DNA of 64,000 nt, from NCBI GenBank assembly GCA_018302765.1, contig JAGVZG010000004.1:1-64000 (forward strand), read 5' to 3'. Both the position numbers and the translations under genes were made by a program. A model generated the notes under the pieces. That model made no database searches and had not been told where the DNA came from. It worked only from the letters and a program-made list of their open reading frames with translations. Positions within the stretch are counted from its first letter, which is position 1; each line of letters opens with the position of its first letter. This document shows, piece after piece, positions 25,812 to 62,743 of this stretch. This DNA comes from Candidatus Woesearchaeota archaeon (GTDB lineage Archaea > Nanobdellota > Nanobdellia > SCGC-AAA011-G17 > GW2011-AR18).

Positions 25812-25952
25812 AGCGCGGGGAGGGAAATTCGTAAACTTTTTTGTTAAGGAAGTTTAGTTCGAACCCCCAATCTGTTGCTGTCTTCTTTATTATAGCTATT
25901 AGTTCATAATAGCAAACTGCAGGCAACTGCCTTGCCGTTGGGCCACCCGCGC
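25812..25952 (-). tRNA. tRNA-Cys(GCA) with two introns (37/38 at 25880-25916; 59/60 at 25826-25857)
   Basis: Acceptor GCGCGGG/CCCGCGC, U73, anticodon stem GTTGC/GCAAC, anticodon GCA at 25918-25920; T-loop BHB helix TTCG/CGAA; 72-nt mature cloverleaf. Confidence 0.88.
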
Positions 25953-29276: not shown

Positions 29277-29443
29277 TGGCGGGCCCGACGAGAATTTCAT
29301 GAACGTTTCTTTCAAATAAAAGTTCTTTTGAACTCGCGACCCTCTGCTAGCTTCCATATAGCTAGAAGGCAGATGCGCTATTAGCCCACCTTCTTTCGTG
29401 AACATTTCTTCCTAAGAAAGGTTCCAGGCTGCGCTACGGGCCC
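29277..29443 (-). tRNA. tRNA-Arg(UCU) with three introns (19/20 at 29382-29423; 37/38 at 29349-29362; 59/60 at 29294-29326), CCA encoded
   Basis: Acceptor GGGCCCG/CGGGCCC, D-stem GCGC/GCGC, anticodon stem TCTGC/GCAGA, anticodon TCT at 29364-29366, T-stem GCGAG/CTCGT; BHB-like motif at each junction; 78-nt mature tRNA. Confidence 0.88.
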
Positions 29444-29467: not shown

Positions 29468-29475
29468 TATTTAAA
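29468..29475 (-). promoter_or_regulatory. TATA box of tRNA-Arg
   Basis: TTTAAATA 25-32 nt upstream of the tRNA 5' end. Confidence 0.6.
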
Positions 29476-29521
29476 GTTTACTAACAACAATATTTATATT
29501 TAACTTAAATTTCTTTAATAG

Positions 29522-60680: not shown

Positions 60681-60792
60681 TGCCCCGCGCGAGATTTGAA
60701 CTCGCGTCAGAGCCTTTCTCCTTTTGCTTAAGCTTTTTCTAAAGGCTTATTTCGAGAGGGCTCTATCCTTGACCGGGCTAGACGAGCGGGGC
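60681..60792 (-). tRNA. tRNA-Glu(CUC) with canonical 37/38 intron (60716-60752)
   Basis: Acceptor GCCCCGC/GCGGGGC, D-loop AGCCCGGTCAA, anticodon stem GAGCC/GGCTC, anticodon CTC at 60754-60756, BHB helix CTCT/GGAG; TATA TTTATAAA at 60817-60824. Confidence 0.92.
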
Positions 60793-62638: not shown

Positions 62639-62743
62639 CGGGCCCGACGGGATTCGAACCCGCGGCCATCTGATTAAGAGTCAGATGCTTTCGGCAATTT
62701 TGAATTTTATTCTGAAATTACTACCAAGCTGAGCTACGGGCCC
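62639..62743 (-). tRNA. tRNA-Lys(CUU) with non-canonical D-arm intron (22/23 at 62690-62720)
   Basis: Acceptor GGGCCCG/CGGGCCC, uninterrupted anticodon arm TCTGA-CT-CTT-AA-TCAGA; removing 31 nt restores the GCTC/GAGC D-stem; TATA TTTATAAC at 62767-62774. Confidence 0.92.

Follow-up and report, generated by a model that had tools for sequence, protein, structure and literature searches.

Two introns of one woesearchaeal tRNA-Arg gene are probably built around separate copies of a scattered, apparently mobile element

How does a single tRNA gene come to carry two similar introns at two different positions? The question is raised by the tRNA-Arg(UCU) gene in the window analysed here, a stretch of 64,000 nucleotides from the genome of a tiny Candidatus Woesearchaeota archaeon from groundwater (G000 in the comparisons below), whose D-loop and T-loop introns were read in the initial annotation as the trace of a transposition within the gene. 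The answer that appears probable is a different one, namely that each of the two introns was built around a separate copy of one patchily scattered, apparently mobile element, denoted family A. In itself, the gene is an ordinary DPANN tRNA with several introns; its interest lies in the element family that it has sampled twice.

In silico removal of the three introns of this gene (Table 1) leaves 75 nt that form a perfect cloverleaf with all stems paired, which is recognized by ARAGORN as tRNA-Arg(tct) and has the top cloverleaf score in a genome-wide search; the unspliced gene is detected neither by ARAGORN nor by the Rfam tRNA model. The splice sites were placed with the BHB rule (a 4-bp helix between two 3-nt bulges, with the cut after the second base of each bulge), first checked on the 37/38 intron of the same gene, which has a weak inner helix and is unrelated to family A. 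At the D-loop site, exon GCCU and intron GGGC form the 4-bp helix between the bulges GGA and UAA, the inner helix is ACCUU/AAGGU, and the outer helix is relaxed, with 1 bp followed by the D-stem. The minimum-energy fold of this intron gives the BHB geometry (z = -2.5), and the junction is fixed by intron-less relatives, which read AGCCTGGA(T/C)AGCGC. At the T-loop site, the central helix UUCA/UGAA with the bulges AAA and AUU is flanked by a 5-bp outer helix (GCGAG/CUCGU) and, after one bulged A, by a 4-bp inner helix (GAAC/GUUC). All three geometries recur when the complete precursor and the separate arms are folded to minimum energy, and the junctions of the spliced tRNA agree with the intron-less orthologues. 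The genome encodes one splicing endonuclease (a 247-aa ORF on contig C12, PF01974 match of 97.6 bits) and an RtcB ligase (contig C27, 565 bits) whose nearest relatives, at 84-90% identity, come from Candidatus Woesearchaeota groundwater genomes. With the splice motifs, the restored cloverleaf and the genes for both enzymes in place, the three segments can be classed as BHB introns whose excision is predicted. The putative promoter of the gene fits a AAAnCTTTATAAA-like motif that is present at the same spacing upstream of most of the 25 catalogued tRNA genes.

Table 1. Features of the tRNA-Arg(UCU) locus, other intron-containing tRNA genes of the window, and family B copies elsewhere in the genome (positions without a contig label are those of the window)
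Feature	Location	Strand	Remarks
tRNA-Arg(UCU) gene	29277..29443	(-)	exons 29424-29443, 29363-29381, 29327-29348, 29280-29293; encoded CCA 29277-29279
Putative promoter of tRNA-Arg(UCU), GTAAAC TTTAAATA	29468..29481	(-)	TATA at -32 to -25
D-loop intron, 42 nt, after G19	29382..29423	(-)	boundary shiftable by 1 nt with the same product
Near-consensus family A copy in D-loop intron	29389..29424	(-)	first base is exon G19
Site-specific 3' arm of D-loop intron, AAGGTGGGCTA	29382..29392	(-)	last 11 nt of the intron
Canonical 37/38 intron, 14 nt	29349..29362	(-)	CUUC/GAAG central helix, bulges UAG and CUA
T-loop intron, 33 nt, at 59/60	29294..29326	(-)	BHB
Diverged family A copy, short form, in T-loop intron	29295..29325	(-)	own tail, with CGAA changed to UGAA, pairs with the UUCA T-loop
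tRNA-Cys(GCA)	25813-25952	(-)	37-nt 37/38 intron and 32-nt 59/60 intron
tRNA-Glu(CUC)	60682-60792	(-)	37-nt 37/38 intron with the second hairpin family
tRNA-Lys(CUU)	62640-62743	(-)	31-nt intron in D arm (~21/22); only a gene fragment reaches the Rfam threshold
Family B tRNA examples	G000:C24:30069-30174, C27:24380-24498, C6:14705-14810, C5:38287-38437, C27:121090-121235, C6:26024-26130
Family B copy outside catalogued tRNAs	C22:32325-32357		antisense inside a 407-aa ORF
Family B copy outside catalogued tRNAs	C22:34143-34174		between convergent ORFs

Read in tRNA sense, positions 29394-29424 and 29295-29325 are identical in 25 of 31 positions without a gap, and both 31-mers are exactly those quoted originally. 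When the D-loop intron alone is shuffled with its dinucleotides preserved, 1 of 20,000 shuffles attains the local score of the pair (32); with both introns shuffled, none of 20,000 does. For comparison within the genome, introns were catalogued with a splice-aware finder that proceeds from acceptor-stem seeds through exhaustive BHB removal and ARAGORN to a combined cloverleaf and BHB score; minimum free energy, tried as the chooser of intron sets, gave wrong solutions, and the combined score was used instead. The resulting catalogue holds 25 confident tRNAs with 32 introns, and thus 496 intron pairs, and is incomplete because the seeds needed a perfect GC-rich acceptor stem, U8 and G53-TTC. 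Within it, the D-loop/T-loop pair ranks 4th-5th (the 99th percentile is 31), and the few other pairs that reach its score are not random AT-rich pairs but come from a second intron family. Similarity of this strength is uncommon among arbitrary AT-rich introns of this genome, and intron families that span different positions are a general feature of it. The proposed homology of the two introns is thus borne out by the shuffles, by the ranking of pairs and by a profile built from other genomes that finds both of them. A blastn-short search with the three Arg introns against the genome yields no further copies; a 14/14 match on contig C26 lies at the start of the ribosomal protein S15 gene and is due to chance.

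The second intron family (family B) consists of a hairpin, AAGCTTTTAGAAAAAGCTT, with an A-rich spacer or tail followed by a site-specific end, and is found in 37/38 introns (Gly-CCC, Asp, two Glu, Thr-CGU) and in 59/60 introns (two Leu, Arg-UCG). The T-loop intron of tRNA-Arg(UCU) was considered as a possible member and rejected, as the family B profile (AAGCTTTTAGAAAAAGCTT type) matches neither of the two Arg introns.

The relatives of these two introns are found instead in other genomes. When 40 related genomes were searched with the whole gene, many matches per genome to the initial 34 nt of the D-loop intron, with identities of 88-97%, emerged in the order's other families. The unit defined by these copies, GAACCTTTCTT-NNN-AAGAAAYGTTC-ACGAAAGAA, comprises a hairpin of 11 bp that contains a single internal mismatch (NAACCTTTCTT, a loop of 3 nt, AAGAAANGTTN') and a single-stranded tail, ACGAAAGAA. 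Among 50 aligned copies, 89.6% of the hairpin cells are paired, compared to at most 65% in slid controls, and the closing pair 2-26 is GC in 31 sequences, UA in 15 and AU in three; such compensatory changes indicate that the hairpin is maintained. The 31-nt family A pattern, with up to three mismatches, has 67 matches in 21 of the 151 sampled genomes, which are incomplete metagenome-assembled genomes of the order (Woesearchaeota), whereas the reversed control pattern has a single match in the same set. These 21 genomes represent at least 10 families and carry up to 11 copies each; within the family to which the present genome belongs, the pattern is found only in this genome and in G008.

The settings of the element are diverse. 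As part of introns, family A is found in the D-loop (G008, G094 and G134), at 21/22 of tRNA-Lys (G036 and G023), at 37/38 (G029, G103 and G114) and, most commonly, at 59/60 (G002, five introns in G008, G114, G026, G012, G084 and others), in tRNAs for Arg, Ser, Lys, Thr, Glu, Leu and other amino acids. Five further copies lie immediately 3' of tRNA genes, at least 10 separate a BRE/TATA-like motif from a start codon, and some are arranged in tandem. The leader copies are often 0-25 nt downstream of the BRE/TATA-like motif, at varying distances from the TATA box and the start codon, and precede unrelated genes including gyrA and genes for a lipoprotein, a dehydrogenase and ribosomal proteins. 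In view of the similarity of the core to the local BRE/TATA consensus (12/17 with the gene's own promoter), a role as the promoter itself was considered, and rejected because leader copies have separate upstream TATA boxes at variable distance.

Several individual loci deserve mention. In G026, a 40-nt spacer between the end of a gyrB-like ORF (...LDI*) and the start of gyrA consists almost wholly of the element (L025, G026:C1:23118-23550). In L053 (G113:C86:4164-4894, ORF 78-620), a family A copy lies in frame in a 180-aa MTS-domain methyltransferase, right after NPPY, and is translated through as EPFLKRNVRERKNL without a stop; it could represent a tolerated insert of 14 residues or, alternatively, a BHB intron of the mRNA. 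In a second tRNA gene, apparently for Ser, family A is likewise represented twice, in the 37/38 intron and in the 59/60 intron (L059, G114:C6:115-845). Three copies in G147 (L049-L051) each follow a conserved motif of about 30 nt, GGACAC..GTTTCCATCTGCCTTYCYTC, and in G140 (L088) the same motif precedes a different hairpin of like style; the motif may represent a composite repeat or the 3' end of an RNA.

A profile built from 16 copies, all from other genomes, places the D-loop copy first in the 1.02-Mb genome (E = 3e-11), and this copy has no mismatches to the 31-nt family pattern. The T-loop copy is the second-best match to the same profile, with the next match at E = 1.1. Its layout, a hairpin directly followed by the tail, corresponds to the short 59/60 form of the family (a 31-nt example is present in G008) and is shared with 59/60 introns of G008, G114 and G002. 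The weak score (13 bits, E = 0.05), together with this context, suggests that the T-loop intron is a family A member. The two Arg introns are the only members found by the profile search in this genome.

The two introns differ in how the element is joined to the splice site. As originally noted, about 11 extra nucleotides, AAGGTGGGCTA, build the D-loop BHB: they provide the 3' strand of the inner helix (AAGGT with ACCTT), the exon-pairing GGGC (with GCCU) and the 3' bulge (TA+A). The AAGG of this arm is still within the element in many family A copies. The complete arm, AAGGT-GGGC-TA, recurs almost unchanged behind the element in a D-loop intron of a different tRNA in G008 (L006), the D-loop of which likewise reads AGCCUGG, so that GGGCTA is the D-loop arm in both genomes. 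In the long 59/60 forms of G002, G008 and G114, the full tail is kept and GGTT plus (A/T)TGAAAG forms a separate arm, (A/T)TGAAAG serving UUCA T-loops in all three. The suggestion that a core can acquire a new splice-site arm therefore stands at the level of the family, where one core is combined with different short 3' arms at different sites, but not in its original form of a T-loop copy refitted for the D-loop of this gene. In the pre-tRNA, the element would supply the inner helix of the splice motif and a short 3' segment the four bases that pair with the exon: in the D-loop, the GGGC of the added arm would pair with GCCU, and in the T-loop, the element's own tail, with CGAA mutated to UGAA, would pair with UUCA. 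A single splicing endonuclease and the RtcB ligase would then remove all three introns and yield a normal 75-nt tRNA.

The history of the gene was read from orthologues of tRNA-Arg(UCU) in 12 relatives. The 37/38 intron is identical in G001, of the same genus, and conserved in most orthologues, and both congeners, G001 and G002, have this intron without the D-loop and T-loop introns. The 59/60 intron is absent in all 12 orthologues examined, and an intron at the same D-loop site is found, among the 12, only in G005 and G021, which represent other genera of the same family. The T-loop and D-loop introns are accordingly lineage-specific in their presence, as in transposed intron families. The D-loop intron of G005 has similar ends and a different interior; given these same-site introns in G005 and G021, the D-loop intron may be older than the element copy that it now contains. 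An additional intron of about 31 nt at about position 27/28 of tRNA-Arg(UCU) is present in seven relatives (L002, L004, L005, L010, L011, L014 and L017), both congeners included, and is absent from the present genome; one intron has therefore been lost in this lineage, which carries two others.

Because the present genome has only two copies, the case for mobility comes from other genomes, and its main argument is provided by filled and empty sites. Within the genus, the element occupies the D-loop of Arg(UCU) in G000 and the T-loop of Ser(GGA) in G002, and in each genome the other site is empty. In the leader of an orthologous protein gene, the element separates a conserved TATA box from the ATG in G056 and G028, and the outgroup G075 has the promoter and the gene without the element. 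A search for an empty site corresponding to a G147 copy gave no clean case, the flanks being on different contigs or 10 kb apart in congeners. These observations are best accommodated by the probable reading stated at the outset, under which the D-loop copy would be young or newly arrived and the T-loop copy older or less constrained, and both introns would have been gained after the split from the two sampled congeners, or else lost in both.

It is nonetheless conceivable, if unlikely, that the motif is an immobile, conserved functional cis-element, such as a leader hairpin, a protein-binding site or a part of the promoter, which is kept by selection and is tolerated or exploited by introns. 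The conservation of 88-100% across families could be a sign of selection on a function, and not of recent spread. Compensatory changes preserve the hairpin, the leader copies often stand just downstream of a BRE/TATA-like motif, and the element is in sense orientation in all tRNA-associated copies and in ~17/20 leader copies relative to the downstream ORF. Nor does a target duplication, a transposase or a reverse transcriptase track the element. No general target-site duplication is apparent, as 5/51 copies have at least 8/10 flank matches compared to 8% in the null from cross-copy controls. A Y1 transposase (PF01797) is present in one of five element-rich genomes and absent from G056, G028, G026 and G008 (76-98% complete), a reverse transcriptase is found in two of the five, and the richest genomes have neither enzyme. 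Against a cis-element speak the variable spacing to the TATA box and the start codon, the unrelated nature of the downstream genes, the restriction to 21/151 genomes with different loci within one genus, the existence of tandem copies, of one that is in frame within a methyltransferase gene and of intron copies at no fewer than four tRNA positions, and the outgroup that has the same promoter and gene without the element. Suggestive imperfect direct repeats of downstream sequence are seen only in L008 (G026:C2) and L054 (G113:C106), where they read ATGAGTGTCACTG / ATGAGTGTTCCTG (including the start codon) and AGTCCCGAT / AGTTCCGAT, respectively.

If the element is mobile, as we favour, the sense bias, the lack of target duplications and of a tracking enzyme, and the tail complementary to the T-loop fit an RNA-level route or transcription-linked insertion; the same features fit a conserved functional hairpin tolerated in introns almost as well. 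In the strongest version of the RNA-level route, which we regard as rather improbable, family A would be a mobile intron cassette that encodes no protein. Once excised, an intron would enter another transcript, be it at a tRNA loop, a tRNA trailer or an mRNA leader, through the endonuclease and ligase reactions run in reverse, and would subsequently be copied back into DNA. Such a cassette would explain the sense orientation, the tail, the missing target duplications and transposase, and the near-identical cores across families. Were this true, two such insertions would be recorded in the tRNA-Arg gene, and in one of them the intron would have gained an arm suited to a new site.

Direct transposition within the gene, as initially proposed, appears quite improbable in comparison. 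Under this scenario, the T-loop intron, or a 59/60 intron of a TTCG-loop tRNA of this genome, was copied into the D-loop and then gained the GGGCTA arm. The two copies are indeed only 57 nt apart in one gene and are the sole family members of the genome; the tail, CGAA-AG, is of the kind that an intron at position 59/60 of a UUCGAAU T-loop would require; family A introns are most often at this site; and elsewhere in the genome 59/60 introns have ACGAAAG or ACGAAAA as their ends. However, the identities do not support copying of the T-loop intron into the D-loop of the same gene. Over the same 31 nt, the D-loop copy matches the consensus in 29 positions and the T-loop copy in 27, compared to the 25 in which they match each other. 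The best match of the D-loop core is a 37/38 intron in G103, which belongs to a different family and is identical in 31/31 positions. Among 43 distinct foreign copies, 28 are closer to the D-loop copy than the T-loop copy is, and 14 are at least as close to the T-loop copy as the D-loop copy is. At all six positions where the two differ, one of them has the majority base of the family, so that they have no derived state in common; copying from the T-loop to the D-loop would require the D-loop copy to revert four T-specific changes to the consensus, and copying in the opposite direction would require two chance changes of the T-loop copy to the majority base. Elsewhere in the genome, no donor with this core was found. 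The related claim that the GTTC-A-CGAA end of the D-loop copy is a relic of a donor with a TTCG loop fares no better: GTTCACGAAAG is the conserved tail in every setting, including tRNA 3' ends, copies far from any T-loop and protein-gene leaders without a nearby UUCG, and is therefore no proof of descent from a TTCG-loop tRNA. Given that this tail is complementary to TTCG, the family as a whole may have begun as a 59/60 intron. The two Arg copies most plausibly represent independent members of a single family that appears to be mobile.

Finally, chance or convergence, whereby two AT-rich hairpin introns, one of which alone folds no better than shuffles (the T-loop intron, z = -0.5), became alike as both must form splice-site helices, is extremely improbable in view of the rarity of the score among shuffles, of the foreign profile that finds both introns, and of the shared GAAC/GTTC and CGAA segments, which play no part in the D-loop BHB, so that the match is not dictated by structure.

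For the acquisition of introns by archaeal tRNA genes, family A offers a concrete lead. It presents a tractable case, with a short core in different loops equipped with site-specific arms, filled and empty sites in one genus, and extragenic copies, which make both the retargeting of introns and the direction of traffic between introns and intergenic regions directly testable. Some context is available from other archaea. In Asgard archaea, no general arrival route for introns has been found (bioRxiv 10.64898/2026.10.13.758758, a 2026 preprint), and DPANN endonucleases with an extra loop and broadened specificity accompany more disrupted tRNA genes (Kaneta et al. 2018, PMC5829648), incomplete tRNA sets having been flagged for Woesearchaeota (PMC5829648). 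With its three introns in the D-loop, at 37/38 and at 59/60, its relaxed BHB and its invisibility to standard finders, tRNA-Arg(UCU) resembles the multi-intron tRNA genes of Thermoproteales and DPANN (Sugahara et al. 2008, via PMC4090602; PMC5829648); it does not differ from them in kind and adds one more example.

The element invites comparison with three known systems. Like bacterial REP/MITE-like repeats, family A is a short, palindromic, multi-copy unit with a patchy, intergenic or intercistronic distribution, and a dispersed palindrome is what is found here as well (two copies in this genome); unlike these repeats, it shows a strong sense bias, no general target duplication and no co-occurring cognate Y1 transposase, and its copies inside tRNA genes would be viable only because they are spliced out as introns. 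In Caldiarchaeum, a tRNA-Thr gene gained an intron via a 1.9-kb mobile insertion with a recombinase gene, through att-site recombination (Sugahara et al. 2012, PMC3293823). Both cases link recent gain of a tRNA intron to mobile DNA, at the strain level in Caldiarchaeum (PMC3293823), but the family A unit is only ~35-40 nt long and encodes no protein.

The closest parallel is provided by Thermoproteales, where intron families common to different tRNA genes and positions have been read as the result of transposition (Fujishima et al. 2010, via PMC4090602; bioRxiv 10.64898/2026.10.13.758758); the mechanism of this 'large-scale tRNA intron transposition' is given as unknown (PMC4090602). Lineage-specific gains and the limitation of sites by the BHB requirement are common to both systems (Fujishima et al. 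2010, via PMC4090602). A search of the open-access literature yielded no paper on tRNA intron families with extragenic copies, nor any on two members in a single gene. By comparison with the Thermoproteales families, family A is distinguished by its presence in DPANN (Woesearchaeota), by two members in one gene, by a core that is also found in leaders, tRNA trailers, operon spacers and a coding region, and by the near-identity of this core across families of the order. The present case adds the occurrence of two family members in one tRNA gene, together with the test of direct copying that their identities afford.
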